A stretch of 64,000 nt of DNA from an archaeon (GTDB lineage Archaea; Undinarchaeota; Undinarchaeia; Undinarchaeales; JBDRKL01). The stretch is from NCBI GenBank assembly GCA_043814055.1, contig JBDRKL010000012.1, forward strand, positions 64,001 through 128,000, given 5' to 3'. A program made the position numbers and the translations under genes. Positions 8,266 to 53,863 of the stretch are shown piece by piece (within the stretch, counting starts at the first letter, position 1; every line of letters begins with the position of its first letter). The notes under the pieces were generated by a model. It was not told the DNA's origin. It worked only from the letters and a program-made list of their open reading frames with translations, and made no database searches.

Positions 8266-8356
8266 GGCCTCGGTCTGTTTAGCCCACTTCGCGAAGCGAA
8301 TGTGGGTGCTCACCCTCCGCGAGCAGGCGGAGGTGTGGATGCCGGGGATGATGTAG
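8266..8356. repeat. Palindromic insert followed by a second copy of the thermosome 3' end
   Basis: ATGCCAGGGATGATGTAA (8248-8265) vs ATGCCGGGGATGATGTAG (8339-8356), enclosing two hairpins. Confidence 0.7.
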
Positions 8357-8376
8357 ATACCCAATAAATAATCTGA

Positions 8377-8418
8377 AGAGGGGCTCAATACAAGGGCTCC
8401 TCTTTTTCTAATTTTTTA
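8377..8418 (+). terminator. Stem-loop plus T-tract terminator
   Basis: AGAGGGGCTC/GGGCTCCTCT stem followed by T-rich runs. Confidence 0.6.
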
Positions 8419-8470
8419 ATCGTTATCATAAGCTTTAAATAGATACTTTCTTTATTCCGCAGTGGTAACA

Positions 8471-9061
8471 ATGCCGCTAAGAGAGGAAACTTACGAAATA
8501 GTCCCGATTGACCCTGTTCACAAGGCTGAGAGGAAGCACGAGAGCCTTGAGAAGGAAATTGCAGACATAAAAGCCGCGATGAGGGGGACTGTTGGAATTT
8601 CAAAGCTCCAGTCAGGGGCTGATGAATTAATACATCACATGCTTGACTTGCTGAAGAGTTCGCAGAACATGGTTGAAGAGGTCGCGAAGTCAAACCAGCA
8701 GGTTTCGCTCAAGATTCAGGAGGGGCTGGACAAGATGAACGCGGTGAACGAGCAGATGTCCGGCAAGCTCGCGAAGATTCTTGAGATGTTCTCCCAGGCT
8801 GCAGCGGCAATGGGCGGGGACGATGGCTCCGAGGAGCTCGCCAAGGCAATTACTGGATTGAACAAGTCAATTGAAACTCTTGTTGAAAAGACCGGGGAGA
8901 ACACGCAGATACTAAAGTCAATTGAAAAGAACCTGAGAGGCCCGGCGGCAAAGCCGCGAAGCGCAATGCCAATGTTGCAGAGGCCGAACTTCCCGCCGGC
9001 TCCGAGGGGAATGCCGCCGCTCGGGCAGGGTGAGCTCCCACCACCGCCACCGCCAATGTGA
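8471..9061 (+). CDS. Coiled-coil protein with Pro-rich C-terminus, upstream of the pilus locus
   Basis: Heptad-like helical sequence with PPPPPPM end; ATG at 8471. Confidence 0.7.
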   Translation: MPLREETYEIVPIDPVHKAERKHESLEKEIADIKAAMRGTVGISKLQSGADELIHHMLDLLKSSQNMVEEVAKSNQQVSLKIQEGLDKMNAVNEQMSGKLAKILEMFSQAAAAMGGDDGSEELAKAITGLNKSIETLVEKTGENTQILKSIEKNLRGPAAKPRSAMPMLQRPNFPPAPRGMPPLGQGELPPPPPPM

Positions 9062-9074
9062 GGTAAAAAATTGA

Positions 9075-9281
9075 ATGACCACAAGAAAGTCACGGAAAAT
9101 AGTAATTCAACTTGCCATACTATTGGCTTTCATATTTGGGGCAATGGTTGCCGTGGTTGCATACTACACAGGAAGCACGATGATGGGGTTGATATTTTTG
9201 ACCGCGATACAAATCATAATACTGCTCGCTGTTCTGTTTATGATGGAGACCATAACAGAGTTGCTGGAGGCTAAACTATGA
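9075..9281 (+). CDS. Small two-TM membrane protein
   Basis: Two hydrophobic segments; GAGGT upstream. Confidence 0.6.
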   Translation: MTTRKSRKIVIQLAILLAFIFGAMVAVVAYYTGSTMMGLIFLTAIQIIILLAVLFMMETITELLEAKL

Positions 9282-9322
9282 CCCAAGAAACATATATAAA
9301 GGCAGAGGCATTAAGACGAAAT

Positions 9323-9787
9323 ATGAATTTCCCATTGGGCAACCGAAGAGGTATCACACCCATTATTTCAGTTATCTTATTACTGATGATGACCATAGCC
9401 ATCGCTGGCTTGGCTTATACCTGGCTGCAGGGCCTGCAGACAACTATAGAAGAGTCTACTGAGAACACTACAACGAGAATGCTAGGCGAGATGAATGTTG
9501 AGCTCAGACTAGATGGAGCATCTGGGTCACCCATCAGCGGGAGCGGCTACTGCAATGCGACTGTTTACGTGAGGAATAAAGGAACTGAGAGGGCGGACAA
9601 TCTTCAGCTCTATGTTAACGACTTAATGGTTGTTGGCGGGAATATAACTTCACTTTCACCCGGATCAACAGTCAGTTGGGCATACGTAAATTCATCCACG
9701 CTTAATGTCACGAACAACACATTCCACAAGTTCAAGATAGTGAGTGACGAGACCGAAGCATCTGAGAGCATAAAGGTTCTTTGCTGA
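9323..9787 (+). CDS. Type IV pilin (archaellin/pilin N-terminal domain), probable major pilin
   Basis: Class III signal RRG/ITPIISVILLLMMTIAIAG; own TATA (ATATATAAA near 9292); alternative start 9278. Confidence 0.85.
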   Translation: MNFPLGNRRGITPIISVILLLMMTIAIAGLAYTWLQGLQTTIEESTENTTTRMLGEMNVELRLDGASGSPISGSGYCNATVYVRNKGTERADNLQLYVNDLMVVGGNITSLSPGSTVSWAYVNSSTLNVTNNTFHKFKIVSDETEASESIKVLC

Positions 9788-9830
9788 ACCCTAAGCAAAC
9801 TATTTTAAATTCCACTGCTTAGACAGGAGT

Positions 9831-10466
9831 ATGTCAAAGGGGCAAATTACGTCATTCTCAACCATCCTGATGATAAGCCTGATAATCGTGCTTATTGTTG
9901 GGACTTACAGCTGGGGCAGTGATCTCGTGGAAACGCAAGAGACAAGAACAACGATTAATTACATGCAGGCAAATCTCCTTGACCTGGAGAGCGCCATAGT
10001 TGAGGTTTCCCACGAAGGCGAGAACGCGACGAGAGCAATCCAGATTGATGTTTCTGCTGGGAAGCTCTATGTTGCTGACGAGGATTATTGCATTGGAGAT
10101 GTTGTGAATAGCAATGGAATCGTGTATGAACTCAGCACTGAAAATGCGTTCATAGATTCAAGCGCAACTGGATGGATAAACATAGATCCATATGATTCCG
10201 GCACTGATTGCGAGGTTAGCTATTTTGATAACTCGGCTGGACTGCTCCTAGCCAGGACTCAGAATGTGGGAGACGCATACGTGAACCAGTACATGATTTG
10301 GTTCAGGAAGCTCACTTCGGGCGGCGGTAACTACTTGATTAACATTAGCAAAGGCACTTCAAGCGAAACCTCGGGCGGCGGGGCAGTGGTAAGTGTCCGA
10401 AATACTGGGACCGTGACAACAGGCGGGGTAACATACATCAACGTGGAAGTTAACCTCGGAGGATAA
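9831..10466 (+). CDS. Pilin-like protein (class III signal peptide)
   Basis: SKG/QITS followed by hydrophobic helix. Confidence 0.75.
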   Translation: MSKGQITSFSTILMISLIIVLIVGTYSWGSDLVETQETRTTINYMQANLLDLESAIVEVSHEGENATRAIQIDVSAGKLYVADEDYCIGDVVNSNGIVYELSTENAFIDSSATGWINIDPYDSGTDCEVSYFDNSAGLLLARTQNVGDAYVNQYMIWFRKLTSGGGNYLINISKGTSSETSGGGAVVSVRNTGTVTTGGVTYINVEVNLGG

Positions 10467-10498
10467 AAGATATATAAATAGCAACGCTAGTTCTGAAT

Positions 10499-10939
10499 AT
10501 GTGGTCAAACAGGAAAGGCGCAGCTATGGTTGTTGAGCAGGCCTTCATAGCAGTTTTTGGCATTGTAATACTCATAACCGTGATGATAGTATTCTCAAAT
10601 CTCAGGATAGATTTTTCAAAACACGTTGCAGAGGCGCAGTTTGACGAGGTGGGCGCGGTCACGCACAATGCTGTTCTGCAGGCCTATGAAAACGGGAAGT
10701 ATGCGAATAGTGCCAAGGTAGTGGTCAGACTGCCTGGCAAACTAGGGGGAATGCCGTACACGGTCTCGCTGACCAATGATAATATAACTGTCCAAAATAT
10801 ATACGGAGACGTGAACAGAACGCTGGGCGTGATGAATATTACCGCAAACCTGTCCGGAAATTGCAGCTCAACTGGCAGCGGACCTTGCGTGGTTGAGTAC
10901 AACAGCTCAAGTGGAAACATAACCCTGGAGACCCTCTGA
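10499..10939 (+). CDS. Pilin-like protein (class III signal peptide)
   Basis: RKG/AAMVVE followed by hydrophobic helix. Confidence 0.72.
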   Translation: MWSNRKGAAMVVEQAFIAVFGIVILITVMIVFSNLRIDFSKHVAEAQFDEVGAVTHNAVLQAYENGKYANSAKVVVRLPGKLGGMPYTVSLTNDNITVQNIYGDVNRTLGVMNITANLSGNCSSTGSGPCVVEYNSSSGNITLETL

Positions 10940-13005
10940 TGGGAAGGCAAGAACTTAAGGAGTTTATGAGAAAAGCGGCTGAAGTCTACCGTGAGGAGGA
11001 TGAAATACGCAAGAAGGTCACGATTAAATCAACTCCGAAGCCAGTGATTATAGATGACCTCCACAAGGAGCTCAGGGGCGAAGGCGTCCCAACCGGCCTG
11101 AGCCAGAAAATGCACGAGATTGTTAATAAAGAACCAGCCATTGACAGCAGCTCTGAACCTGACTTGCGCGAGGAGGTTGGCAGTGCGATAAAGGAAGCGG
11201 TTGAGCACAAGAAGAACGGCAAGATAAGCGAGGAAGGGCTCACGAAAATAGTGCAGGAAGCTGTTTCAGAGCACGAAAAAGGATTCACGAAAGATGACGT
11301 CAGGGCCATAATACAGGAGGTTCTCAAGTCAGAGTTGCAGAAGGGGGCGATTCTTTCAAGGTACGCCCCACAGGTGAATGCAACCCCTGTTGCGATTGAA
11401 GTAAAGGATGAAACGCAAAACCTGAGTATGCCGCTCCCGTCCATTAATGATGGGGGAATGATAAAGAGACGGCATGCGGATGCGAGCGGATTTGCAGGGG
11501 AGGATTTCACAAAGGTTAACATAACCTATCCGCTTGTGTACAGAGAGGGCAAGGTTCACGTTTACGCTAACATAAAATATGACCAGCAGGAGCGCGGTCT
11601 TTTGTACAGGATTATAGAGCCGCAGTTGAGCAAGGAAGAGCAGGAGAAGCTTGACAAGATAGAGACCACGCTAATAGAGGAGCTTGAAGTTGACTTTGCC
11701 GCACTAAAAATGCAGACCGCTGAGAAATACCTGAAAGAGAAAGTTGACGAGGTCATCATATATTATAAGATGGAAATCAGCAAGAGGACTAGGGACCTGA
11801 TGGATTATTTCATACATCGGGACCTGATAGGGCTTGGAAAAATTGAGGCGATGATGCAGGATGCGAACATAGAAGACATAAGCTGTGATGGTGTTGGAAT
11901 CCCAATTTACGTTTACCACAGGGACCCGAGGTTTGGATCAATAAAAACCAACATATCGTTCAATAACGCGGATGACCTGGACTCGTTCGTGATGAAAATC
12001 GCGCAGCGCTGCAACAGGTCAATAAGCGTGGCAGACCCTCTCTTGGATGGCGCGCTGCCGGACGGAAGCCGTGTCCAGGCAACATTTGGAACTGGAATAT
12101 CAATGAAGGGCTCCAACTTCACTATAAGAAAGTTCACGCTTGACCCATTGACATGCATTGACTTGCTTAATTATGGGACAATAGGCCCGGAGATGCTCGC
12201 ATACCTGTGGATTGCAATAGAAAACGGAAAGTCCGTGCTGATTGCAGGACCGACCGCGTCAGGAAAAACAACGATGCTCAACGCGCTCTCGCTGTTCATA
12301 CGGCCGGAACTCAAAATTGTTTCAATAGAGGACACTCCGGAATTGAGGCTGCCGCACGAGAACTGGATATCACAAGTCGCAAGAATTGGCTTCGGGCCTG
12401 AAACAATCTCTGGCAAGAAGCTCGGGGAGATTTCATTGTTTGACCTGCTCAAGGCATCGCTCAGGCAGAGGCCGGACACGATAATCGTGGGAGAAGTTCG
12501 TGGCAAGGAAGCCTACGTGCTGTTCCAGCAGATTGCAACCGGGCACCCTGGCATAAGCACGATTCACGCTGAGTCAATGGCCGCGGTCGTGAACAGGCTG
12601 AGAACGCCGCCAATAAATCTGCCGGCAAGCCTGGTGCAGCACTTGGACATATTGATAGTGGTTACGAGGCAAAGACTGCAGGGCAAGTACATGAGGAGAA
12701 CCAAGGAGATTGTTGAAGTCATTGGGTATGATATGGAAAAGGACTGGCCCAAGGTAAACACCACTTATGAGTGGGTGCCCGCAAAGGACAAGTTCAACTA
12801 CACCGGCAAGAGTTTGATACTTAAAGATGTTATGGAAACAATGGGCTCAGACCCTGCGGGAATTTTTTCAGAGGTTGAGCGAAGGATGAAAGTGCTTGAG
12901 TGGATGCAGGAAAATGGCGTTCGCGACTACAAGAATGTTGGACGCGTCATACATGAATACTACCAGAGCCCAGACACGCTAATGGAGAGGATAGGCGAGG
13001 ATTAG
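10939..13005 (+). CDS. Type II/IV secretion / pilus assembly ATPase (VirB11/ArlI family)
   Basis: Walker A GPTASGKTT, SIEDTPEL, LRQRPDTIIVGEVRG, GHPGISTIHA. Confidence 0.95.
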   Translation: MGRQELKEFMRKAAEVYREEDEIRKKVTIKSTPKPVIIDDLHKELRGEGVPTGLSQKMHEIVNKEPAIDSSSEPDLREEVGSAIKEAVEHKKNGKISEEGLTKIVQEAVSEHEKGFTKDDVRAIIQEVLKSELQKGAILSRYAPQVNATPVAIEVKDETQNLSMPLPSINDGGMIKRRHADASGFAGEDFTKVNITYPLVYREGKVHVYANIKYDQQERGLLYRIIEPQLSKEEQEKLDKIETTLIEELEVDFAALKMQTAEKYLKEKVDEVIIYYKMEISKRTRDLMDYFIHRDLIGLGKIEAMMQDANIEDISCDGVGIPIYVYHRDPRFGSIKTNISFNNADDLDSFVMKIAQRCNRSISVADPLLDGALPDGSRVQATFGTGISMKGSNFTIRKFTLDPLTCIDLLNYGTIGPEMLAYLWIAIENGKSVLIAGPTASGKTTMLNALSLFIRPELKIVSIEDTPELRLPHENWISQVARIGFGPETISGKKLGEISLFDLLKASLRQRPDTIIVGEVRGKEAYVLFQQIATGHPGISTIHAESMAAVVNRLRTPPINLPASLVQHLDILIVVTRQRLQGKYMRRTKEIVEVIGYDMEKDWPKVNTTYEWVPAKDKFNYTGKSLILKDVMETMGSDPAGIFSEVERRMKVLEWMQENGVRDYKNVGRVIHEYYQSPDTLMERIGED

Positions 13006-13006
13006 A

Positions 13007-14808: not shown

Positions 14809-14809
14809 A

Positions 14810-15316
14810 ATGAAAAAAGGGCAAATAAACCTGGGATTCGTGGTGGCAGTATTGCTGCTGATAGTATTGATAATATCCACTACAATGACTGTTGTTGGGT
14901 GGGCTCCGGAAGTTGTGGACGAGGCGCGGCACAAGGCGCTTGAGTCCAAGGCAACTGACTTGGGTAAACTGATACTAGAAGACCCAGGAATGCCGGCGGA
15001 TTGGAATGACCCAACCCTTGTGGATGTGCCAGGACTCGCGCTTTATAATGAATATTCAAAAGAGACTGTTATCGGCAAGCTTGACACTATTAAAATAGTA
15101 GGCTGGGAGCTTTTGGGGTATCAGGAGGTCAAGATAAAATTAGGATTGGACAATGACACTAATTTCAGGCTGACCATAAATAGCTGTAATACCACTGATT
15201 TTTATGGGTCGCTTCCAGACGAAACAACGCGGGTTGTGCGGGTAAGGAGACATCTAGTGATTGGGAATTTAACAAATAATGATTGCACGTCAAATGTGAC
15301 ACTGTGGGTGTGGTGA
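14810..15316 (+). CDS. Minor pilin-like protein
   Basis: KKG/QINL, hydrophobic helix, PGMPADW motif. Confidence 0.72.
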   Translation: MKKGQINLGFVVAVLLLIVLIISTTMTVVGWAPEVVDEARHKALESKATDLGKLILEDPGMPADWNDPTLVDVPGLALYNEYSKETVIGKLDTIKIVGWELLGYQEVKIKLGLDNDTNFRLTINSCNTTDFYGSLPDETTRVVRVRRHLVIGNLTNNDCTSNVTLWVW

Positions 15317-18711: not shown

Positions 18712-18825
18712 CTTTTCTCCCAACACATACAAGGACAGCCCCATTTAAATAATGTTCACCTCCATAGGAAATTGTGCCTGAAAAAATTGGAAAAGGTTTA
18801 TATACTACAATTTATGAACTAGACG

Positions 18826-27086: not shown

Positions 27087-29123
27087 ATGGAGAGAGATCC
27101 AATAGAACGATTTGAGGAATTTTTCCGAGAGAAATACTACGACGACCTACTGAAGGTTGCGCGTGAATACCCTGACAAGAAATCTCTTGTCGTGGACTAC
27201 GCGGAGCTGGACAAGCACGATGTTGAGCTGGCTGATCTGCTTCTCAAGGACCCAGAGGAGACCTTCAAGATTGCCAAGGACGCCCTGATGGAGATTGACC
27301 TCCCTATTGAGGGAATCTACAGTATAAATGTGCGCTTCAAGAACTTGCCGAGCTCCCAGAACATAAATATCCGCGACGTCAGGTCAGAGCACATAGACCA
27401 CCTCATAACGCTTGAAGGGCTTGTGAAGAGTGCGGCGGACGTGAGGCCTGAGGCGATTAGGGTTGTGTATGAATGCCCAGACTGCAAGAAGGAAATTGTT
27501 GTGGCACAGGGCGGGAAGAAGCTCAAGACCCCGTTTATGTGTGATGACCCGCAATGCGCCAGGAAAGGGCGGTTCAAACTGCTCAGGGCAGATTTGATTG
27601 ACACGCAGAGCATAAAGATACAGGAGCCCCCTGAGACGATTATCGGCGGGGAGCAGCCATCACAGCTTTACTCACAGCTCAGTGAGGATTTGGTTTCACC
27701 TTTTGAGAGGAAGAAGTCGCTGCCTGGAAACAGGGTCAAAATAACCGGAATTCTCAGGAAGAGGGCAACGCACACGACTGCCGGCGCGCCCACCACAAGA
27801 TTTGACTTGTATCTTGAAGCAAACCACATTGAGACTATTGAGCGCGAGTTTTCAGAGATAGAGCTGAGCAACAAGGATATTGAGGATATAAAGAAATTGT
27901 CAAAGGACAAGAAGCTTTACAAGAAGTTTGTTGATTCGCTTGCACCTTCCATCCAGGGTTATGAGGATGTGAAGGAGGCCATATTGCTGCAATTGTTCGG
28001 CGGGGTTCCTAAGATTCAGCCGGACGGAACCAGAATTAGGGAAAATATTCACTTGTTCCTTGTTGGTGACCCAGCTGTTGGTAAGTCACAGCTGCTAAGG
28101 TATGTTGCTGAGTTGTCGCCAAAGGGCAGGTTTGTCTCTGGGCGAAAAGCGTCAGGGGTTGGTTTGACAGCAGCGGTTGTGCGCGATGAATTTGCCGGCG
28201 GCTGGACCCTTGAAGCAGGCGCGCTTATCCTTGCAAACAATGGAGTGGCTGCTGTTGACGAGTTTGACAAGATGGATGACGACGACAGGAGCGCTATGCT
28301 GGAAGCCATGGAGCAGGGGACGATTTCCATTGCCAAGGCAGGGATTGTAACAACGCTCAGGGCGAACACAACTGTGCTTGCTGCAGCGAATCCAAAGTAT
28401 GGAAGGTTTGACTTGTACAGGCCGCTACCTGACCAGATTGACTTGTCTCCGGTTATACTGAGCAGGTTTGACGTAAAGTTTCTGATACAGGACACGCCAG
28501 GCAGGGAAGCGGACGAGAAACTCGCTGATCACATTCTTAATTCGTTTATTTCTCCAAAAACTGTTGAGCCCGTGATAAAGGGGGAGTTCATCAGGAAGTA
28601 TGTTGCTTACGCAAAGACACATTGCAAGCCAAAGATGACAAGGGAAGCACAAAAAATCATAAAGGACTTCTATGTGACTTGGAGGGGAAAACACGGCGGC
28701 GGGGACAGCGGGGACAACAAAGTTGCGCTTACTCCGAGGCAACTGGAAGCGCTTGTGCGAATGTCAGAAGCATCTGCCAAGGTGCGGCTTGCTGATAAGG
28801 TTACTGTTGAGGATGCGAGGCGCGGCACAAGGTTGCTTGAGTTCTCGCTGAGGCAGCTTGGCACTGAGCCTGAGACAGGGCAGATTGACATTGACAGGAT
28901 AGAGGCGGGCACTAGTTCAATGCAGAGAAGCAAGATTTACACCATGCTCACAATTATTGAGGAGATTACAAAGGACGTTGGCAAGAATGTTCCGGTTGAG
29001 GATATCCTGAAAGAGGCAAAAGACCGCGGCATAGAGGAGCTCGCGGCGCTTGAGCTTATTGGAAAATTAAAGGAGAAAGGTGATTTGTTTGAGCCAAAAC
29101 CGGGCTACCTCCAAAAAGCGTAA
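27087..29123 (+). CDS. mcm: MCM replicative helicase
   Basis: Zn finger, GDPAVGKSQ, VDEFDKM, AANPKYGRFD, SRFD, C-terminal WH; no intein. Confidence 0.97.
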   Translation: MERDPIERFEEFFREKYYDDLLKVAREYPDKKSLVVDYAELDKHDVELADLLLKDPEETFKIAKDALMEIDLPIEGIYSINVRFKNLPSSQNINIRDVRSEHIDHLITLEGLVKSAADVRPEAIRVVYECPDCKKEIVVAQGGKKLKTPFMCDDPQCARKGRFKLLRADLIDTQSIKIQEPPETIIGGEQPSQLYSQLSEDLVSPFERKKSLPGNRVKITGILRKRATHTTAGAPTTRFDLYLEANHIETIEREFSEIELSNKDIEDIKKLSKDKKLYKKFVDSLAPSIQGYEDVKEAILLQLFGGVPKIQPDGTRIRENIHLFLVGDPAVGKSQLLRYVAELSPKGRFVSGRKASGVGLTAAVVRDEFAGGWTLEAGALILANNGVAAVDEFDKMDDDDRSAMLEAMEQGTISIAKAGIVTTLRANTTVLAAANPKYGRFDLYRPLPDQIDLSPVILSRFDVKFLIQDTPGREADEKLADHILNSFISPKTVEPVIKGEFIRKYVAYAKTHCKPKMTREAQKIIKDFYVTWRGKHGGGDSGDNKVALTPRQLEALVRMSEASAKVRLADKVTVEDARRGTRLLEFSLRQLGTEPETGQIDIDRIEAGTSSMQRSKIYTMLTIIEEITKDVGKNVPVEDILKEAKDRGIEELAALELIGKLKEKGDLFEPKPGYLQKA

Positions 29124-29126
29124 GAT

Positions 29127-29186
29127 AGGGGCTTCGCGAACTAAAGTGAGCGAACGCCCCAGCTCTACCTCCGCGAGCAGGCGGAG
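29127..29186. repeat. Palindromic element homologous to 8283-8332
   Basis: GGGGCTTCGC...GCGAACGCCCC hairpin plus identical 18-mer CTCCGCGAGCAGGCGGAG. Confidence 0.75.
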
Positions 29187-30015: not shown

Positions 30016-30623
30016 TGGAGCTCGCAACGAAAATTCACATTAAGGATATACTTGACGGAAAATTCACTCCAGGGCAAGGCTACGAGTCTGGCACGCTGAA
30101 GACAACTGACGGGAAGGAAATCAAGAAAATTCATATTCTGGCCACTATTGTTGAAAAGTTCGTTGCGGAAGACAAGGGATTCGCGAGCATCACGCTGGAC
30201 GACGCCACTGAGACAATAAAAGTCAAGGTATTCAAGGAGCACGTGGCGAAGATTGAGCCCCGGAAGGTTGGGGATATTATTGACGTGATGGGTGTGCTAA
30301 GAGAATATGAGGGCGAGGTTTATGTAATGCCGGATTTTATTAAGATTATTGATGACCCTAATTGGGAGATATTGCGAAACTTGGAGCTTGATAAAAGGAC
30401 TTTGCAGAAAGCAAATGAAAACACAGCGCTGGGAGCAGCCAGAGTGGAGATTGACCTTGGGCCGATAATACTTGAGAAAGTTGGAGCAGGTAGAATAGCA
30501 ATTAAAGAATTGATAAATGATTTAAAGGAGCACGAAGAAGAGAATGTTCTTGGCAAGGTGCGAGAGCTGATGATGAAGGGCGATTTGTACGAGCCAAAAC
30601 CAGGAGTGATAAAAGCAGTATGA
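30015..30623 (+). CDS. RPA32-like OB-fold ssDNA-binding protein with C-terminal WH
   Basis: ITLDDATETIKV..GDIIDVMG.LREYEGE, DPNWE, GDLYEPKPG. Confidence 0.85.
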   Translation: MELATKIHIKDILDGKFTPGQGYESGTLKTTDGKEIKKIHILATIVEKFVAEDKGFASITLDDATETIKVKVFKEHVAKIEPRKVGDIIDVMGVLREYEGEVYVMPDFIKIIDDPNWEILRNLELDKRTLQKANENTALGAARVEIDLGPIILEKVGAGRIAIKELINDLKEHEEENVLGKVRELMMKGDLYEPKPGVIKAV

Positions 30624-36368: not shown

Positions 36369-36539
36369 ATGGGAAAGAAAGAAAAGGTCAGCCTGCCGCC
36401 AATGGGCGGGGGATTGTTCAGGCCAACAGAAGGCGAAGGAACAGGACTAAAGCTCAAGCCAGAGCACGTAATTGGAGCTGTTATTTTTGTGATTGTTTTT
36501 GAGGTTTTTCTTCACTTTTACGGGAACTCGCTGTTTTAA
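36369..36539 (+). CDS. secG: Preprotein translocase subunit Sec61beta (absent from ORF track)
   Basis: My translation: MGKKEKVSLPPMGGGLFRPTEGEGTGLKLKPEHVIGAVIFVIVFEVFLHFYGNSLF; LP.xGGGL.R...KxxPE + TM pattern. Confidence 0.88.
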   Translation: MGKKEKVSLPPMGGGLFRPTEGEGTGLKLKPEHVIGAVIFVIVFEVFLHFYGNSLF

Positions 36540-37566
36540 CTCCAGGAATTGAAAGTATTGGGGAATCACGTTCAGTAAAAGATGAGCCGTAGGTTTGCGT
36601 CCGTTCTATGCCGGGAATTTTGATAATCTCTTTGATGATTTGCTTCATGATTTCACGCTCGCTTGAGCCGTGAGCCTTCGCAACTATGTTGAACTTTCCG
36701 GAGAGGATATGTGCCTGAGTGATATTTGGTATGGCTGCAAGAGCCTTCAGGATGTCGTCAAGCTTTATGTTCTTGTCTATTAGTTTGTCAGCTGAGATTG
36801 TTGAGACGAAGATGAAAGCGGTTGCAGGAAGGCCTATTTTTCCAGGGACTATTTTTGCGTGGTAGCCAATGATAACCTCGTTTGTTTCAAGGCGGCGCCT
36901 GCGGTGGTGCACAGTGGTTGGAGGGATGTTAAGTTTTGAGCCAAGCTCACGGGAAGAGAGCATGCAATTCTGCTGAAGCTCAGCGAGGATTTTGCGGTCA
37001 GTGTTGTCAAGCTTGACCTCGCCTTCCTTGAGCACTGGGATTTCCTTTTTCACTGACTCGTGGATAGAAAGCTCGTGGCTGTCCAGGGCAGAGAGTCCGA
37101 TGAAAAGCGTCTCGGTTCGGTTGATTCCAGGAACAGCTCGGATTTGGTCAATAAAGAGACGACCGATCTCCCAATCAGTGGCGCCTGTTGCCCTAACGAG
37201 TATGTCCAAATCCCCTGTGAGAATGTCAACGCTTGAGACGTTGTTAAGCTTTCCAATCTCGTGAGTGATGTCATATACGCTCAGCTTTTCCTGCATCATC
37301 AGGTGTAGGGAGAGAATTTCAATAAGAATTAGGACTGATGTATTAAGGCCGACTGCGTTTGGATTTAATTTTGCGTGGTATCCTGATATCACGCCGGTTG
37401 CCTCAAGTCGCTTGCGCCTGTGATGTGCAGTGGTTGAGGGGATTCCAACTTTTGAGCCAAGCTCACGGGAGGAGAGCATGCAATTCTGCTGAAGCTCAGC
37501 AAGAATCAAGCGGTCAGTGTTGTCAAGCTTGACCGGAGCTATGGGATTTGGGAGAGTTTCTTTCAT
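36481..37566 (-). CDS. Tandem (double) Lrp/AsnC transcriptional regulator
   Basis: Two LDNTDRxILAELQQN HTH + RAM domain units. Confidence 0.9.
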   Translation of the reverse strand: MKETLPNPIAPVKLDNTDRLILAELQQNCMLSSRELGSKVGIPSTTAHHRRKRLEATGVISGYHAKLNPNAVGLNTSVLILIEILSLHLMMQEKLSVYDITHEIGKLNNVSSVDILTGDLDILVRATGATDWEIGRLFIDQIRAVPGINRTETLFIGLSALDSHELSIHESVKKEIPVLKEGEVKLDNTDRKILAELQQNCMLSSRELGSKLNIPPTTVHHRRRRLETNEVIIGYHAKIVPGKIGLPATAFIFVSTISADKLIDKNIKLDDILKALAAIPNITQAHILSGKFNIVAKAHGSSEREIMKQIIKEIIKIPGIERTQTYGSSFTERDSPILSIPGVKTASSRKSEEKPQKQSQK

Positions 37567-38232: not shown

Positions 38233-38351
38233 GGGGGTGTGGTCTAGTTTGGTATGATACTTGCTTTGGGAGCAAGTGGTCCCCAGTTCAAAGGCGTGCG
38301 AAGCGTGACTTAACATGCGCTTGTGCGTGGAAAATCTGGGCACCCCCACCA
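38233..38351 (+). tRNA. tRNA-Pro(TGG) with 42-nt T-loop (59/60) intron at about 38293-38334
   Basis: GGGGGTG/CACCCCC acceptor, CTTGC-TTTGGGA-GCAAG anticodon arm, CCCAG-TTCAAA[intron]T-CTGGG, encoded CCA. Confidence 0.92.
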
Positions 38352-38457
38352 CTCCGCCTAGCCGCGGAGAAAGGCTGTCCCGCATCACACAACACACACT
38401 CGTGTGTGTGCATAAATCACCGCAATGCGGTGATTCATGTTTGTGATGCTGCGGGAC
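38352..38457. repeat. Multi-hairpin palindromic element downstream of tRNA-Pro
   Basis: CTCCGC/GCGGAG, GTCCCGCA/TGCGGGAC, ACACACAC/GTGTGTGT, AATCACCGC/GCGGTGATT stems. Confidence 0.7.
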
Positions 38458-43787: not shown

Positions 43788-43788
43788 A

Positions 43789-46132: not shown

Positions 46133-46164
46133 ATTCAATACCTAATTGTAGGAGAGATTTAAGA

Positions 46165-47271: not shown

Positions 47272-50200
47272 AAAGAGATGTGAAAAAAGTGCTTGTGATT
47301 GGCTCTGGCCCGATTGTGATAGGCCAGGCTGCAGAGTTTGACTACTCAGGAAGCCAGGCGCTAAAGGCGATGAAAGAGGAAGGCGTCAAAACCGTGCTTG
47401 TCAATTCAAATCCCGCTACTATTCAGACTGACAGGGACATGGCTGATGCAGTTTACATAGAACCGCTGACCCCCGAGATTGTTGAGAAAGTGATTGAAAA
47501 GGAGAAACCGGACGGAATTTTGTCCGGGATGGGAGGGCAGACAGCGTTGAATATAATTTCTGAATTGGCTGAACGCGGAGTTCTTGAAAAGCACAATGTT
47601 CAAGTGCTTGGGACTCCGGTTGATACGATTGAAACCAGCGAAAACAGGGAGTTGTTCAAGCAGATGATGCTCAAGATTGGGGAGCCGGTTCCGAAGTCAA
47701 AGAGCGTGAACACAGTTCAAGAGGCGCTGGATTTTGCAGAGGAAATAGGATATCCGGTTGTTGTAAGGCCGGCTTACACACTTGGCGGCTCAGGCGGCGG
47801 CATTGCCCACGACTTCGTTGACCTAGAGAGGATTGCAGGCAATGGCATTTCGCTGAGCAGGATAGGCCAGGTTCTCATAGAGGAATACCTGAGCGGCTGG
47901 AAGGAGATAGAGTACGAGGTTATGCGCGATTCTGCTGACAACTGCATAACCATCTGCAATATGGAGAACCTTGACCCGATGGGAATACACACAGGGGATA
48001 GCATTGTTGTTGCGCCGTCGCAGACGCTGAGCGATGATGATTACCACATGCTGCGCTCGGCGAGCCTGAAAATTATCCGCGCGCTGAAAGTGGAGGGCGG
48101 GTGCAACATACAGTTTGCCCTTGACCCAAAAAGCAGCGATTATAGAATCATAGAAGTCAACCCGAGAGTTTCAAGAAGCTCAGCGCTCGCGTCAAAAGCA
48201 ACCGGATACCCAATAGCACTCATCTCCGCTAAGATAGCAATTGGCAGAACGCTTGGTGAGATACCAAACGCAGTAACTAAAGACACGCCAGCCTCTTTTG
48301 AGCCGGCGCTGGATTATATTGTTGTTAAAATACCAAGATGGCCATTTGAGAAGTTCCCAATGGCTGACAGAACCCTTGGAACCGAGATGCGCAGCACTGG
48401 TGAGGTGATGGCAATAGGCAGGACGTTTGAGGAGGCGCTGGACAAGGCAGTGAGGAGCTTGGATATTGGGAAGAAATTGATTGATGGGACTGGGGAGATG
48501 GATAAGGGGCACTTGAGAGAATTTTTGACAGTCGCAACTCACAAGCGGCTGTTCCACATAGTTGACGCGATTAAGAGCGGATTTTCAGACGAGGAGATTG
48601 TTGAGCTCACAAAGATAGATCCGTGGTTTATCTGGAAAGTACGGAGCATTGTGGAGAGTGGAGATGGGAAAAAGAAAAAGTGCTACAAGATGGTGGACAC
48701 TTGCGCGGCAGAGTTTGAGGCAAAGACGCCGTATTACTATTCGACTGAAGGCGATGTAAGTGAGAGCGTTGCATCAAACAAGAAGAAAATAATTATACTT
48801 GGCTCCGGGCCAATACGGATAGGACAGGGTATTGAGTTTGACTACTGCACTGTTCACGCGGTGTGGGCGCTTAGGGAGATGGGCATAGAGACAATTGTAA
48901 TTAACAACAACCCAGAGACAGTTTCAACTGATTATGACACTTCGGATAAATTGTATTTTGAGCCGCTTGATTTTGAGCACGTGATGAATGTTGTGAACGT
49001 GGAGAAACCAACAGGCATTATAACCCAGTTCGGCGGGCAGACAGCTGTAAATCTTTCTTTGCCTTTAGAAAAAGCAGGTGTTAAAGTCTTTGGAACCTCA
49101 CCAAAAAGTATGGACTTGGCTGAGGACAGGACTAAATTCACAAAGGTTTTGAAAAAGCTCAAGATACCGCAGGCAAACTATGGTGTTGCACACAGCTTTG
49201 AAGATGCAAAGAAGGTTGTTGCCAGTATTGGCTATCCGGTTTTGGTCAGGCCGTCTTATGTTCTTGGTGGCAGGGCAATGGAGATAGTGCATAGCGAAGA
49301 TGAACTTGTGAATTACATGAAAGAGGCCAGAAAAGTTTCTGAAAAGCGACCCATACTCATTGACCAATTTTTGCAGAATGCGATAGAAGTTGATGTTGAT
49401 GCGGTGTGTGATGGAAGTGAAGTGCTTATTGGCGGCATCATGGAGCACATAGAGCAGGCAGGAGTGCACTCTGGGGACAGCTCGTGCGTTGTGCCACCGC
49501 AGAGTTTGAGCAACGAGATTGTGAAGAAAATCAGGGATTACACTAAAAAGCTTGCGCTAGGTTTGAATGTTGTTGGGTTAATGAATGTGCAGTATGCGGT
49601 GAAAGATGAGGTGGTTTATGTTCTTGAGGCGAACCCGCGGAGCTCAAGGACAGTGCCGTTCATAAGCAAGGCAACAGGGATTCCGCTCGCGAAGATTGCG
49701 GCGCAGGTCATAGCCGGAAAGAAATTAAAAGAGTTAAAAGTGAAGAACAAAATTCTGAATCATGTTTCAGTTAAGTCCGTTGTTTTCCCGTTCAACAAGC
49801 TGCCTGGCTCTGACACCAAGCTCGGGCCTGAGATGAAGAGCACTGGAGAAAGCATGGGCATAGCTGACAGCTTCCCGGAGGCATTTTACAAGGCACAGCT
49901 CGGCGCAGGCGTTGAGATTCCATCAGATGGGTGTGTTTTTTTCGCTGTGAACCACGAGGACAAAGAGCATATCACTGAGATAGCGCGCGGCTTTGAGGGG
50001 CTGGGGTTTGAGATACTTGCAGTTGGCCGAACTGCAAAAATTCTCCGCGTGGACGGCGTTTCAGTTAGAAAAGTCTTTAAGGCCAGCGAGGGAAACCTAA
50101 ACATTGTTGACCTTATCAAGCGCGGAGAAGTGGACCTTGTGATTAACACGCCGACAAAAGGAGGATCAGCGAATAGGGATGGCTATAAGATACGGACGGC

Positions 50201-50321
50201 GTGCATACGCTCAAATGTTCCGTGCATAACAACGCTTGCAGGGGCAAGGGCTGCGCTCAAGGCGATTGAAAATGCAGGTAGGGGCGGGATGCAGGTTAAG
50301 CCGCTTGGGGATTACTACTGA
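47268..50321 (+). CDS. carB: Carbamoyl-phosphate synthase large subunit
   Basis: GSGPIVIGQAAEFDYSG, two ATP-grasp units, MGS domain. Confidence 0.97.
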   Translation: MKRDVKKVLVIGSGPIVIGQAAEFDYSGSQALKAMKEEGVKTVLVNSNPATIQTDRDMADAVYIEPLTPEIVEKVIEKEKPDGILSGMGGQTALNIISELAERGVLEKHNVQVLGTPVDTIETSENRELFKQMMLKIGEPVPKSKSVNTVQEALDFAEEIGYPVVVRPAYTLGGSGGGIAHDFVDLERIAGNGISLSRIGQVLIEEYLSGWKEIEYEVMRDSADNCITICNMENLDPMGIHTGDSIVVAPSQTLSDDDYHMLRSASLKIIRALKVEGGCNIQFALDPKSSDYRIIEVNPRVSRSSALASKATGYPIALISAKIAIGRTLGEIPNAVTKDTPASFEPALDYIVVKIPRWPFEKFPMADRTLGTEMRSTGEVMAIGRTFEEALDKAVRSLDIGKKLIDGTGEMDKGHLREFLTVATHKRLFHIVDAIKSGFSDEEIVELTKIDPWFIWKVRSIVESGDGKKKKCYKMVDTCAAEFEAKTPYYYSTEGDVSESVASNKKKIIILGSGPIRIGQGIEFDYCTVHAVWALREMGIETIVINNNPETVSTDYDTSDKLYFEPLDFEHVMNVVNVEKPTGIITQFGGQTAVNLSLPLEKAGVKVFGTSPKSMDLAEDRTKFTKVLKKLKIPQANYGVAHSFEDAKKVVASIGYPVLVRPSYVLGGRAMEIVHSEDELVNYMKEARKVSEKRPILIDQFLQNAIEVDVDAVCDGSEVLIGGIMEHIEQAGVHSGDSSCVVPPQSLSNEIVKKIRDYTKKLALGLNVVGLMNVQYAVKDEVVYVLEANPRSSRTVPFISKATGIPLAKIAAQVIAGKKLKELKVKNKILNHVSVKSVVFPFNKLPGSDTKLGPEMKSTGESMGIADSFPEAFYKAQLGAGVEIPSDGCVFFAVNHEDKEHITEIARGFEGLGFEILAVGRTAKILRVDGVSVRKVFKASEGNLNIVDLIKRGEVDLVINTPTKGGSANRDGYKIRTACIRSNVPCITTLAGARAALKAIENAGRGGMQVKPLGDYY

Positions 50322-50812
50322 GGAAGCCTTGGCCGACGGCCGGTTTCTTTAACAAGCCGGTTAAATTTGTCCTGCAAATCTGTCATAGCGTATTCAATCA
50401 GCTCATCCAATTTGGAGATGTCTTCTTCTGTGACTTTCAAAAAAAGAGTGAATGAATGCTGGACGCCTTTTAATTGATTCAAGTTGTTTTGGGTGGTTTC
50501 AAAATCTCTGCGAAGTGAGGTGATTGTGAAGGGGGATGAATGGTTTTCCTTTAAAGAGCGTGCGATGCCTGCAATTCGGAATTCCTCGTGCTGTATTGAA
50601 TCGTCTATTTGCGCCAGTATTCCTTTGAACTCTTCTTGCCGTGCGAGCAGAGCCTTTTTAAACGTATTCAAACCAGGCAGGATGGAATTGAAGTCCTTGT
50701 AGTCCTGATCAGAAATGCGGGCGCGTGACTTGGTAAAAAATTTGTCTGCCCACGCCCTGAGACCCTCTTCAAGTTCCTCAGTGAGGTGATTGTACCCCTT
50801 TTGATCACCCAT
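50315..50812 (-). CDS. Hypothetical coiled-coil protein
   Basis: 165-aa helical ORF with TATA-like box upstream. Confidence 0.6.
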   Translation of the reverse strand: MGDQKGYNHLTEELEEGLRAWADKFFTKSRARISDQDYKDFNSILPGLNTFKKALLARQEEFKGILAQIDDSIQHEEFRIAGIARSLKENHSSPFTITSLRRDFETTQNNLNQLKGVQHSFTLFLKVTEEDISKLDELIEYAMTDLQDKFNRLVKETGRRPRLPQ

Positions 50813-50891
50813 ATGATAAAATAGTTGTTTTCGCTGTATAAAAGCTTTTATGGAAAGGTATAAATCACATTTTAAACATGATATTTTAGAT

Positions 50892-50933
50892 ATGGGCGCA
50901 AAAACTTCAGTTCGGAGAAGCAGGCGGCTTTAG
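50892..50933 (+). promoter_or_regulatory. Candidate Arg-rich leader peptide MGAKTSVRRSRRL*
   Basis: TATA GTATAAAT 50858-50865; codons CGG AGA AGC AGG CGG; overlapping hairpins and downstream T-tract. Confidence 0.4.
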
Positions 50934-51015
50934 CCGCGCCCATCGGTATCTTTTTATTCACCCAAAGATTATTAGTCTTCAGCCAATGGGCTGTTGACGG
51001 TGTAAGGCAAAAAAA

Positions 51016-51202
51016 GGATCCGTAGCCTAGTCTGGATAAGGCGACAGCCTTCTAACAACCGCAAAATCGGTTGACGCTTTGGGTCGCATTCCGCTTCGCG
51101 GAAGCGACCCGGCTCGCGCGTTCGCACGCGCTCGCTCGGTCAATTCGAGCAAGTTGGTTGGAAGCCAGCTGTAAATCAGGGGTTCAAATCCCCTCGGATC
51201 CA
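51016..51202 (+). tRNA. tRNA-Arg(TCT) with 112-nt 37/38 intron (51055-51166)
   Basis: GGATCCG/CGGATCC acceptor; ACAGC-CTTCTA[intron]A-GCTGT; canonical BHB CTTC/GAAG with 3-nt bulges. Confidence 0.95.
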
Positions 51203-51216
51203 CTCAAACCTAAAAT

Positions 51217-51466
51217 GGGCCAGTAGCCTAGTCTGGATACGAGGCGGAAGCAAGCTCCCGCTTGTTTCCAGCTCCGCTGGAAAAGGCGTCAGGCTTCGGA
51301 CCAGCGGCAAATTCATTTGCTCTGGAAGGATACCTGAAGACCGAGGGTTCAAAACTCCGCCGCTGCGGAGGATAGCAGGGGGCTTGGTTAAAACCGAGCA
51401 TTCCGCCAAAAGCGGAAGCCCCCTATAAAATGCAGCGCCGGACTGAAAATCCCTTCTGGCCCACCA
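51217..51466 (+). tRNA. tRNA-Arg(TCG) with three introns (D-loop about 51240-51283, 37/38 about 51300-51331, 59/60 51354-51449)
   Basis: Removing the three inserts gives a complete cloverleaf GGGCCAG...CTGGCCC-A-CCA. Confidence 0.88.
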
Positions 51467-51502
51467 TAATCATTAAAACCAAGGAAAACCTACGGGAAAA
51501 CA

Positions 51503-53665
51503 ATGGCAAAGAAAGAAAAGTCAAAAAAAGCGGTAAAGAAGAAGGTAATGCCGAAAACTCTAAAGAAGAAGGCAGCCATTAAGAAGAAACTAGTAGTGAA
51601 GAAGAAAGCTTTGATTAAGAAAAAAATTGTAGTGAAGAAGAAACCAGTGTCTAAGAAGAAAGTGACACCAAAGAAGAAGGTTTCAAAACCAAAGAAAGCC
51701 CTTGCAAAGAAAAAGCTGGTGGTGAAAAAGAAAGCTGCAAAACCGAAAGCCAAAAAGGCAGCGATTAAGAAGAAACCGGTAAAAGCAAAGAAAACTGTGA
51801 AGAAGACAACAGTTAAGAAGAAGGTTTCAATAAAAAAGAAGGCTGTAAAAGCCAAGAAAAAAGCAGCAAAACCTAAGAAGCCGCCGGAACCAAAAGAAGA
51901 GCAAGAACCTGAGAAACCAAATGAACCTACCTATGACCCGTGGCAGGAACTAAAGAATCAGGCACAAGCAGCGATTGAAGAAGCTGTGAAGACCGCGAAG
52001 ATTAAGGTTCCATCAGAGGTAAATTTTGCAACTGCGATTGAAGAGCCGCCAAGCGCCAAGATGGGAGATGTGGCTTGTAGCATTGCGTTTTCATTGGGAA
52101 GAGCATCTAAGAAGAACCCAAGACAGCTTGCGGAACTGCTCATATCAAAAGTAAAGAAGCCGCCAATTTTCAAGAAGGTTGCGCTCGCAGGAGCGTACAT
52201 CAATTTCTTTCTGGATCACGATAAGTTCGCAAAGCACATTCTTGCAAAGGTTGTTGACGACGATTATGGCCGGGGAGGGAAGAAGGGCGACAAGGTAATG
52301 GCAGAGTTCTGCCAGGTTAACACGCACAAGGCGTTTCATATTGGGCATATTAGGGGAACCATACTTGGCGAGACTATTTCACGCATTTTGGAGTACAGCG
52401 GGTATGAAGTTGTGAGAGCAAATTACCAAGGGGACATTGGCTCGCACGTTGCAAAGTGGATGTGGTATTATAACAAGTTCAAGAGTGGAGAGAGCCCGCA
52501 TGGCAAGGGGGAAACCTGGCTTGCTAATATTTACCGGGCTGCCACGCAGGAGCTAAGGGAGCACCCTGAATACGAGAAAGAGACCAGCGAGATTCTGCAG
52601 AAGCTTGAAGCCGGTGAAGATGAAAAACTGATGCAGGCCTGGCGGGAAACTCGGCAGTGGTCGCTTGATGAGTATGAGAAAATTTACAAAGAGCTTGACG
52701 TGCGATTTGACCGATATTTCTTTGAGAGCGAGATGGGAAACTCTGGCAAGGAAATCGTGGACGAACTGCTCAAGAAAAAGATTGCAAAGATGAGCGAGGG
52801 CGCTATTGTGATAAATTTGGAGAAGTTTGGGCTCGGAACGTATCTTTTGCTTAAGAGCGACGGGACCGCGCTTTATTCCACCAAGGACCTGGCGCTTGCA
52901 AAGGCTAAGTTTGAAGAGTTTGGAATTGATATTTCACTTTATGTTGTTGGATCAGAGCAGCGGCTTTATTTCCAGCAGCTGTTCAAGACGCTTGAGCTGA
53001 TGGGCTTCAAGCGCGCGAAGAAGTGCCACCATCTTGCTTTTGACCTGATAAGCCTGAAGGAAGGCAAGATGTCCTCAAGGGAAGGTACTGCCATTTTATA
53101 TTCTGAGCTGAGAGACGGGATGTTCAAGAGGGCGCTTGAAGAAGTTATGGAAAGAAATCCGGAGATGGACCCGCACGAACAGAAGATCATTGCGAATAAA
53201 GTTGCGTACGGCGCGATGAAGTTTGACATACTTAACATAAACAACAACAAGACAATATTCTTTGACTGGGAAAAAGCACTTGAATTTGAGGGCGAGACCG
53301 CGCCTTATGTGCAGTACGCCGGAGTTCGATGCAAGAGAATACTTGAGAAGGCTGGAAAAGTGCCTGAGACTGGAAAAGTTGACTTCGGAAAGCTGAAGCT
53401 TGCAGCAGAGCACGAGCTTGTCAAGATGCTCGCGAGATTCCCTGGGGTTATTGCCACGGCTGCGAAGGAGTACAAACCGCACTTCATTGCGAATTATGTA
53501 TATGGGCTAGCTGACAAGTTTAGCACTTTCTATACCGAGGCGCCTATAATGGACGCGGGAGATAAGGCAACAAAAGATGCTCGGCTTATGCTGCTAAGCG
53601 CAACATATAAAACCCTTGAGAAAGCCCTATATCTGCTCGGAATAGAAATTCCTGAGCGTATGTAA
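51503..53665 (+). CDS. argS: Arginyl-tRNA synthetase with about 140-aa Lys/Ala/Pro/Val-rich N-terminal extension
   Basis: NTHKAFHIGHIR (HIGH), KMSSREG, GETAPYVQYA, LGIEIPERM. Confidence 0.96.
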   Translation: MAKKEKSKKAVKKKVMPKTLKKKAAIKKKLVVKKKALIKKKIVVKKKPVSKKKVTPKKKVSKPKKALAKKKLVVKKKAAKPKAKKAAIKKKPVKAKKTVKKTTVKKKVSIKKKAVKAKKKAAKPKKPPEPKEEQEPEKPNEPTYDPWQELKNQAQAAIEEAVKTAKIKVPSEVNFATAIEEPPSAKMGDVACSIAFSLGRASKKNPRQLAELLISKVKKPPIFKKVALAGAYINFFLDHDKFAKHILAKVVDDDYGRGGKKGDKVMAEFCQVNTHKAFHIGHIRGTILGETISRILEYSGYEVVRANYQGDIGSHVAKWMWYYNKFKSGESPHGKGETWLANIYRAATQELREHPEYEKETSEILQKLEAGEDEKLMQAWRETRQWSLDEYEKIYKELDVRFDRYFFESEMGNSGKEIVDELLKKKIAKMSEGAIVINLEKFGLGTYLLLKSDGTALYSTKDLALAKAKFEEFGIDISLYVVGSEQRLYFQQLFKTLELMGFKRAKKCHHLAFDLISLKEGKMSSREGTAILYSELRDGMFKRALEEVMERNPEMDPHEQKIIANKVAYGAMKFDILNINNNKTIFFDWEKALEFEGETAPYVQYAGVRCKRILEKAGKVPETGKVDFGKLKLAAEHELVKMLARFPGVIATAAKEYKPHFIANYVYGLADKFSTFYTEAPIMDAGDKATKDARLMLLSATYKTLEKALYLLGIEIPERM

Positions 53666-53680
53666 TAGAGACAAAAGTGT

Positions 53681-53863
53681 GCCAGGGTAGCCTAGTTTGG
53701 ATAAGGCGACAGCCTCCTAACAGCGGCAAATTCCGCTGGCAAATTGGGCCGCATTCGGCTTTCAGCCGAAGCGACCCGGCCCGCTGCGCGGGCAAAAGCC
53801 AATAGCGGAAAGCTGATGGAAGCAAGCTGTAAGTCGAGGGTTCAAATCCCTCCTCTGGTGCCA
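53681..53863 (+). tRNA. tRNA-Arg(CCT) with 105-nt 37/38 intron (53720-53824)
   Basis: GCCAGGG/CTCTGGT acceptor; ACAGC-CTCCTA[intron]A-GCTGT; encoded CCA. Confidence 0.92.

Follow-up and report, generated by a model that had tools for sequence, protein, structure and literature searches.

A short hairpin cassette shared by intergenic inserts and tRNA introns of a small archaeal genome, and its probable nature as a mobile DNA element

The stretch of archaeal DNA analysed here, 64,000 nucleotides from a genome of the Undinarchaeales (positions 64,001 to 128,000 of contig JBDRKL010000012.1, in our numbering G000:C12:64001-128000; hereafter the window), carries the same cassette of about 60 nt both in inserts between genes and in the introns of tRNA genes. 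That much is a confirmed observation. The cassette is likely to be of the small non-autonomous repeat kind, newly tied here to the gain of tRNA introns, and we think it rather probable that it is a non-autonomous mobile DNA element which founds or extends such introns. The source genome, G000, is very small for an archaeon (980 kb in 14 contigs, 82% complete) and is the sole member of its family: the arginyl-tRNA synthetases (ArgRS) of its closest relatives are 53-57% identical to its own, and a metagenome scan revealed no close relative, the best full-length identity being 44%. Comparisons employed a phylum set of 17 genomes (72-98% complete), in which G000, G002, G006 and G010 (76-82% complete) are rich in the element; for copy counts, 694 kb of G006 and 359 kb of the roughly 700 kb of G010 were fetched.

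The cassette, termed family I, is protein-less. It comprises hairpin A, with a 6-bp stem and a loop of 4-6 nt; a linker of 8-11 nt that pairs with the loop of A; and hairpin B, in which two 5-bp stems are separated by one bulged purine and closed by a variable tip. Across the stems of 18 non-intron copies pairing is intact in 96% of cells, and 14 of the 20 pairs covary on both sides. The pairing of A-loop and linker extends over 4.0 nt, compared to 2.6 nt when partners are permuted (28 distinct pairs; none of 2000 permutations was as good). Two other views of the fold were tried and dropped: a triplex, since no mirror covariation is visible by eye and both stems covary as Watson-Crick pairs, and a ribozyme of hepatitis delta virus or theta type, whose junction should be unpaired but is base-paired in the cassette.

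A preliminary description of the window had recognised two palindromic modules at nine sites, all of them present in the sequence and correctly placed. The modules are indeed common to intergenic inserts and introns, but they are not independent, being halves of the one cassette. Module 2 has four matches in the window (8315, 29169, 38352 and 51355) versus none in 100 shuffles, and 27 genome-wide versus none for a reversed control. For module 1, whose pattern was written post hoc, the five places already noted are the only matches in the window (at most 2 in 100 shuffles), and the genome holds 26 against 0-3 in five shuffles. A position-blind descriptor of the complete cassette found 24 copies in G000 (19 non-intron, 5 intron) versus 1, 0 and 1 in shuffles, and 13 further copies in the fetched parts of G006 and G010. 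The resulting descriptor set numbers 37 (32 non-intron, 5 intron), one of 38 matches (G006 C1, AT-rich and without the B core) having been excluded before counting. A related family II, distinguished by a long T/A stem, gives 13 pattern matches in G000 (2 in introns) against none in three shuffles, and also begins three tRNA introns elsewhere in that genome; smaller hairpins are nested within the tips and loops of both families. In family II copies such as that at 3495-3596, the stem of T-tract and A-tract is followed by a second A tract, an arrangement compatible with a switch or triplex.

Two covariance models were built: R1 from the 13 non-intron copies of G006 and G010, and R2 from 18 non-intron G000 copies, variant hairpin A included. 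The sites in the window are as follows.

3495-3596, plus strand: family II intergenic copy with long T/A stem and nested hairpins
8248-8264, plus strand: target duplication, copy 1, the last 17 nt of the thermosome gene (6616-8265)
8275-8332, minus strand: family I cassette, directed toward the thermosome gene end (hairpin A 8315-8332, linker, hairpin B 8283-8306); descriptor match; R1 30.6 bits, held out
8339-8355, plus strand: target duplication, copy 2, with 1 mismatch in 17, lying 6 nt from hairpin A
29124-29186, minus strand: family I cassette (hairpin A 29169-29186, hairpin B 29127-29160) between the MCM gene (27087-29123) and a presenilin-type protease gene, duplication not above chance; R1 38.2 bits, held out
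38233-38351, plus strand: tRNA-Pro(UGG), its own 42-nt T-loop intron (38293-38334) being outside the family
38352-38456, plus strand: family I copy directly 3' of the CCA of tRNA-Pro(UGG) (hairpin A 38352-38369; variant hairpin B with small hairpins nested in it); R1 23.6 bits
51016-51203, plus strand: tRNA-Arg(UCU) gene; Rfam tRNA 51.9 bits; spliced form Arg(tct)
51055-51166, plus strand: Arg(UCU) intron at 37/38, 112 nt (hairpin A 51056-51073, from base 2; hairpin B 51081-51110; third domain; splice tail), predicted bulge-helix-bulge (BHB) of 4/4/6 pairs; R2 35.0 bits, E 3.6e-6, held out
51217-51466, plus strand: tRNA-Arg(UCG) gene with three predicted introns, giving a 78-nt Arg(tcg) once all three are removed
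51239-51282, plus strand: D-loop intron of Arg(UCG), 44 nt, not a family member
51300-51331, plus strand: anticodon intron of Arg(UCG), 32 nt, from base 3 onward like hairpin A of the Arg(CCU) intron and at its end like the tail of that intron
51354-51449, plus strand: T-loop intron (59/60) of Arg(UCG), 96 nt (hairpin A 51355-51370, from base 2; hairpin B with an inserted small hairpin; tail 51432-51443 complementary to the first 12 nt at 10 of 12 positions); R1 29.7 bits, E 4.1e-7, held out
53681-53863, plus strand: tRNA-Arg(CCU) gene
53720-53824, plus strand: Arg(CCU) intron at 37/38, 105 nt (hairpin A 53721-53738, from base 2; hairpin B 53746-53777); R2 51.1 bits, E 9.3e-10, held out

Models made solely from non-intron copies score the introns as members. 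The four best R1 matches in the window are, in order, the copies starting at 29118 and 8276, the T-loop intron of Arg(UCG) and the copy at 38346. R1 scores both anticodon introns low (12.4 and 9.4 bits); the preliminary description had these introns in the family, rightly, while missing the variant hairpin A that each contains (51056-51073 and 53721-53738). R2 matches the Arg(CCU) and Arg(UCU) introns along its full length, with the values listed above, and gives the Arg(UCG) T-loop intron 19.2 bits, compared to 17.5 bits for the best unexplained site. The latter, at 30388-30448 on the minus strand, lies inside an open reading frame (ORF) with its stems broken and is either chance or a decayed copy. 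Across G000, R2 yields 46 matches at E <=0.1, among them the Met T-loop intron (59.3 bits), the Arg(CCU) intron (51.2 bits) and the Trp intron (32.7 bits), in a list for which 150 of 224 candidates were scored and which leaves the Arg(UCU) and Leu(CAG) introns outside; on the Arg(UCU) intron of G002 it scores 32.3 bits.

Direct alignment leads to the same family. Nine same-subtype pairs of intron and intergenic copy beat 500 of 500 shuffles, the similarity extending beyond the hairpins, whereas two unrelated control introns did not. Matches at 82/119, 51/57, 48/61, 45/58 and 35/41 nt (0 of 500 shuffles each) include that of the G002 Arg(UCU) intron with an intergenic G002 copy bearing a 14-nt duplication (82/119) and that of the initiator-Met intron with a copy behind tRNA-Ile (51/57). 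The preliminary description had proposed covariance models and module frequency against shuffled sequence as its check; one model fits both classes and the copies exceed shuffles, so the shared family withstands it.

The cassette-bearing inserts in tRNA genes are predicted to be spliced as introns. All six introns in the window have full or relaxed BHB ends with 3-4 of 4 pairs in the central helix, and after their removal in script ARAGORN recognises normal Arg(UCU), Arg(UCG), Arg(CCU) and Pro(UGG) tRNAs; on the unprocessed window ARAGORN alone recognises one tRNA gene and Rfam two, Rfam giving tRNA matches only. The minimum-energy fold of pre-tRNA-Arg(CCU) forms the BHB, and G000 encodes both EndA and RtcB. 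Of 26 introns catalogued in G000, 12 start with a family member and 14 are without the element. Adding six from G002, G003, G005, G009 and G011 gives 18 element-led introns from six genomes, nine found by position-blind pattern, descriptor or model and nine assigned by eye. Hairpin A starts at base 2 in 13 of these, at base 1 in three and at base 3 in one, and overlaps the exon in one; no cassette was seen in the interior of an intron. Furthermore, the 5' arm of hairpin A pairs with the intron's 3' tail as the outer BHB helix, at 7.7 of 10 pairs compared to 6.0 with swapped tails (0 of 5000 swaps), a figure from an anchored test allowing one bulge; an unanchored tail search was significant in 1 of 5 introns. 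In T-loop introns the tail pairing also takes in the loop of A. The introns are thus more than the safe sites the preliminary description took them for: the cassette forms the intron's 5' end and one strand of the splice helix.

An unrelated AT-rich repeat of about 70 nt in G009 (L165, L238 and L255) has a different insertion habit. This third family is found in the Ile(UAU) and Phe introns, which are short in G001, at the tips of their hairpins, and occurs also in an intergenic position after tRNA-Ser. Its use of the tips shows that an intron has safe positions other than its 5' end.

Most orthologous tRNAs of relatives are intron-free. The Arg(UCG) gene lacks introns in 9 of 9 relatives seen; the Arg(CCU) intron of G000 is absent from 9 of 9, two of which (G003 and G007) have an unrelated 18-nt intron; and the 37/38 intron of Arg(UCU) is absent from 5 of 6, being present only in G002. 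An ArgRS tree (15 rows, G013 left out) pairs G002 with G010, places G006 outside them and leaves G000 on a long unresolved branch, so that the introns shared by G000 and G002 in Arg(UCU) and Ala(CGC) must have been either lost or gained more than once. It might be that the cassette is mobile DNA which never creates introns, landing instead at the 5' edge of existing short introns whose 3' half is then re-tuned to hairpin A. We judge this improbable, if deserving of serious attention. The tRNA-Trp of G000, in which a cassette precedes an older 56-58-nt intron kept in G006 and G010, is just such a case, and the unrelated short introns at the Arg(CCU) position in G003 and G007, as well as the 14 G000 introns without element, are in keeping with it. 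Against it, cassettes sit at base 1-3 and not at the hairpin tips where the G009 repeat inserts; each tail fits its own hairpin A better than others, including A's loop in the T-loop introns; and the orthologues are mostly intron-free. Whether insertion alone makes both junctions is a question on which the data pull both ways: orthologues are intron-free, yet non-intron copies are without the 3' tail (0 of 32 match an intron tail above their own shuffles) and Trp is an insertion into an older intron.

Once formed, introns appear to have travelled. Whole introns recur between the T-loops of Arg(UCG) and Lys(CUU), and between the anticodon loop of Arg(CCU) and the T-loop of Met. The 32-nt anticodon intron of Arg(UCG) is, to judge by its sequence, likely an internal-deletion remnant keeping the two ends of the Arg(CCU)/Met unit. 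The T-arm exons of Arg(UCG) (51332-51466) match those of Lys(CUU) (G000:C10:139214-139436) and differ from the Arg(UCG) of relatives; in this pair, sharing a T-loop intron, exon may possibly have been co-converted with intron. In G011, near-identical intron-bearing tRNA-Thr(UGU) genes lie on two contigs (L240 and L241), one at a contig end, and represent an assembly duplicate or a recent copy.

Evidence of mobility comes from the flanks of the non-intron copies. A direct repeat of 13-35 nt of host sequence (duplication score >=13) is present at 15 of 32 of these, compared to 1 of 129 controls and 0 of 5 intron copies; some of the duplications are tandem arrays. In 11 of the 15 the duplication ends no more than 2 nt from hairpin A, while its distance from hairpin B ranges over 1-72 nt; a duplication that ends at hairpin A fixes the 5' edge of the cassette there. 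The duplication rebuilds the end of a gene or tRNA, as at the thermosome gene (8248-8264 and 8339-8355). Empty sites are also seen: the thermosome end and the MCM junction are both empty in G002 and G006, and at the 3' end of Arg(CCU) G006 has a copy where G010 has none. Beside hairpin A, the duplicated T-loop is altered almost identically at independent tRNAs in G006, G010, G002 and G000 (e.g. L060:5020 and L089:12539), changes which may be a footprint of insertion chemistry or the outcome of selection against an additional T-arm.

Many of the duplications restore a tRNA 3' end from the T-loop on, as integrases do, and integration of a larger element has been put forward as a way of gaining introns (PMC3293823). 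The copies might be what integrative viruses or plasmids left behind: attL/attR scars at the ends of tRNAs, with a hairpin-rich stub. This we hold to be most improbable: protein-gene starts and ends and tRNA 5' ends are duplicated too, the targets share no sequence, duplication length varies from 13 to 35 nt, no tyrosine recombinase (PF00589) was found in G000, and no viral copy was found. There is scarcely any likelihood, in our estimate, that the copies are host regulatory hairpins (terminators or RNA stabilisers) spread by gene conversion and having no dedicated mobility. Their strong clustering at gene and tRNA ends, conserved structure and want of a detected enzyme would suit such a role; copies facing either way relative to transcription, orthologous sites only patchily occupied, target duplications, DNA-suited loops and in-frame copies in proteins do not. 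The last are family I copies inside two long ORFs: one at G000:C9:26243-26304, in the acidic N-terminal region of what we take to be a protein resembling the signal recognition particle receptor, and one at G000:C4:24794-24906, at the start of what is presumably a hydrogenase-large-subunit-like protein.

R2 finds copies in 7 of the 17 phylum genomes at E 0.01; among 150 archaea sampled, under stricter filters and at 1e-4, only 4 have any. An all-species genome scan returned nine matches, two of them real; six of the other seven had no model score and one scored 18.8 bits with broken pairs.

The loops indicate which came first. In 26 of 37 copies hairpin B is capped, on the strand opposite the intron RNA, by a GNA or AAA triloop; no copy has one on the other strand. 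Ten copies with a long tip likewise carry tandem GA/GA on the non-RNA strand, against none on the other. Inside the 18 element-led introns, DNA-type loops fall on the non-RNA strand 16 times versus once. The old Met and Trp introns of G000 have instead the C-UUCG-G loop, an RNA-type loop. GNA triloops are extra-stable DNA mini-hairpins that occur at single-strand replication origins, the sole RNA counterpart quoted being far less stable (PMC13037366). G006 and G010, with 12-15 copies, have no member among their tRNA introns examined. The observations favour a DNA element first and an intron second, because the loops are on the non-RNA strand, intron tails are missing from non-intron copies, reverse transcriptase is absent from the element-rich genomes, G006 and G010 have copies without member introns, and the orthologous tRNAs of most relatives are intron-free.

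The same evidence bears on the reverse route, an RNA-first one that elaborates the re-insertion of excised introns suggested in the preliminary description: the excised tRNA intron would be reverse-spliced or ligated, copied into DNA by reverse transcription and returned to the genome as an intergenic copy. The coincidence of the cassette's 5' edge with the 5' splice site fits it, as does RtcB in 5 of 5 genomes, and short introns resembling hairpin A plus a few linker bases (G011 Thr(GGU), G005 Leu(UAA) and G001 Gly(UCC)) allow that A may derive from an ancient intron. However, beyond the opposite-strand loops, the 0 of 32 tail matches and the G006 and G010 copies, reverse transcriptase was detected in a single genome of the 17, on a 1.9-kb contig that has no cassette copy; the RNA-first route is already largely refuted, and we consider it very unlikely.

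For the preferred reading, a mobile DNA element that founds or extends introns, the following course of events is proposed. The cassette would fold as single-stranded DNA and, on insertion, be joined precisely at hairpin A, while its end beyond hairpin B would be ragged and closed by host repair. Copies would survive only where harmless: at gene or tRNA ends, rebuilt by the duplication; in frame in flexible protein regions; or on the sense strand inside a tRNA. There, the 5' arm of hairpin A and an intron-specific 3' tail would make the outer BHB helix, for cutting by EndA and sealing by RtcB. The tail might come from the junction, copied as a fold-back, or from an older small intron that was re-tuned, the latter seen for tRNA-Trp. 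Finished introns would probably be copied between tRNA genes and positions, and could then shrink via internal deletion to ordinary short hairpin introns. A bolder version, which we offer tentatively and would sooner expect to fail than to hold, is that of an archaeal 'introner': a protein-less single-strand DNA element manufacturing new tRNA introns, moved by an enzyme class not yet recognised, its insertion copying neighbouring DNA either directly, at gene ends, or as a fold-back that produces the BHB in one step, with the introns spreading between tRNAs and decaying to short hairpin introns.

Several points weigh against an intron-founding mobile element. A clear duplication was not seen at 17 of the 32 non-intron copies, and the filled and empty sites are compared between species, there being no same-species pair. 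Viral scans gave 58 pattern matches (0, 39, 0 and 19), none scored by the models, and no true copy. The Leu(CAG) intron was found by the descriptor only and is in neither model's list, half of the element-led introns were recognised by eye, and the 18 are not independent events since they fall into about six homologous groups. The short introns of relatives named above resemble hairpin A alone. As regards splicing, several motifs are relaxed, pre-tRNA-Arg(UCU) in its minimum-energy fold leaves hairpin A closed and forms no splice motif, and the EndA found in G000 is one copy of 177 aa. That single EndA is encoded despite several relaxed D- and T-loop introns.

The search for a mobilising enzyme must be counted among these points. 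It covered nine families (Y1, GIY-YIG, reverse transcriptase, tyrosine recombinase, Cas1, DUF559, TnpB-type, IS4-type DDE and IS110), none of which was found in the 76-82% complete G000, G002, G006 and G010; of the linked genes that the preliminary description had thought worth seeking, then, no RAYT (Y1), GIY-YIG or reverse transcriptase gene was found in these four. Y1 transposase (RAYT, PF01797) and DUF559 are each found in 0 of 17 genomes; GIY-YIG, reverse transcriptase and Cas1 occur in 1 of 17 each and DDE in 4 of 17, none element-rich. For DDE the searches were with PF01609 and PF02371, other DDE families not being searched. G011, having one weak copy and one element-led intron, gives reverse transcriptase, DDE and IS110 matches on small contigs with no cassette nearby. 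Our best guess, possible within the model proposed here though short of an even chance, is a single-strand nuclease of HUH type supplied in trans by a passing virus or plasmid, because of the precise and ragged ends, the strand-specific bulged hairpins and the DNA mini-loops, by analogy with IS200/IS605, REP and rolling-circle systems.

Two features of the window touch on none of this. The ArgRS gene encodes a repetitive, Lys/Ala-rich N-terminal extension of about 140 aa (51503-51930) ahead of the first Pfam domain, and an ORF at 36481-37566 contains two tandem Lrp/AsnC units, a 169-nt repeat with 79% identity. The Pfam scan of window proteins covered 10 proteins.

No description of these elements was found in the literature, where subscription papers and bioRxiv supplements could hold one. 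How archaeal tRNA introns arrive is stated to be an open question: a preprint on Asgard archaea (October 2026; 10.64898/2026.10.13.758758), in which hallmark proteins and published mobile elements were tested, found no general route. If the reading preferred here is true, the cassette offers such a route in archaea, and with donor sequence, boundary, strand and filled and empty sites in hand the question of intron arrival becomes concretely testable. Element-led introns also explain the many tRNAs of this lineage that standard annotation miscalls or overlooks.

Among known systems, the repetitive extragenic palindromic (REP) repeats and REPINs are mobilised by RAYT (Y1 HUH) transposases. The cassette is like them in being short and non-coding, in its GC-rich bulged hairpins and strand-asymmetric fold, and in its many extragenic copies and composite arrays. 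It differs in that a Y1 gene was found in none of the 17 genomes and a tetranucleotide fixed at the end was not seen, and in having long variable duplications and a loop-linker pseudoknot and forming tRNA introns. With prokaryotic miniature inverted-repeat transposable elements (MITEs), treated together with REPs in an overview of which part was available (PMC3184786), it shares being non-autonomous, shorter than 200 bp, folded and flanked by direct repeats. Unlike in MITEs, the duplication is of 13-35 nt and not fixed, with no clear one at about half of sites, and downstream of the 32 non-intron copies no complement of the first 12 nt occurs above shuffles, as MITE-type terminal inverted repeats would require. 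A search for a DDE partner with PF01609 and PF02371 found none in the element-rich genomes. The REP/MITE-like label of the preliminary description consequently stands in so far as one model, target duplications and empty orthologous sites go, but the cassette fails the tests by which REP and MITE are each defined.

Introns transposed between tRNAs were reportedly described in Thermoproteales by Fujishima et al. in 2010. Copying of introns among tRNAs is known in that group, the transposition mechanism being called unknown in the accessible text of PMC4090602. Homologous introns in different tRNAs and positions of one genome are common ground (PMC4090602 and 10.64898/2026.10.13.758758), but in the present case the body of the intron has its source in dispersed non-intron copies with target duplications, and no such source is named in the available parts of those papers. 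The cassette resembles neither an att scar, G000 having no PF00589 integrase and the targets being unrelated in sequence with no constant att core, nor a retroelement of the short interspersed nuclear element type, reverse transcriptase not having been found in the element-rich genomes and the DNA-type loops lying on the strand opposite the intron RNA.

Proteins tolerate the palindromic elements of Rickettsia as in-frame inserts, and structural RNAs tolerate them too. The cassette is tolerated likewise in both settings, but it is shorter, is predicted to be spliced out of tRNA and has long variable duplications. Finally, eukaryotic introners are non-autonomous DNA elements with an edge at a splice site, adding introns lineage by lineage. 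Unlike theirs, the introns here are archaeal BHB introns in tRNA and not spliceosomal, most copies lie outside introns and there is no transposon structure with terminal inverted repeats; like an introner, the cassette has an edge that coincides with a splice site, and it would add introns lineage by lineage in the same manner.

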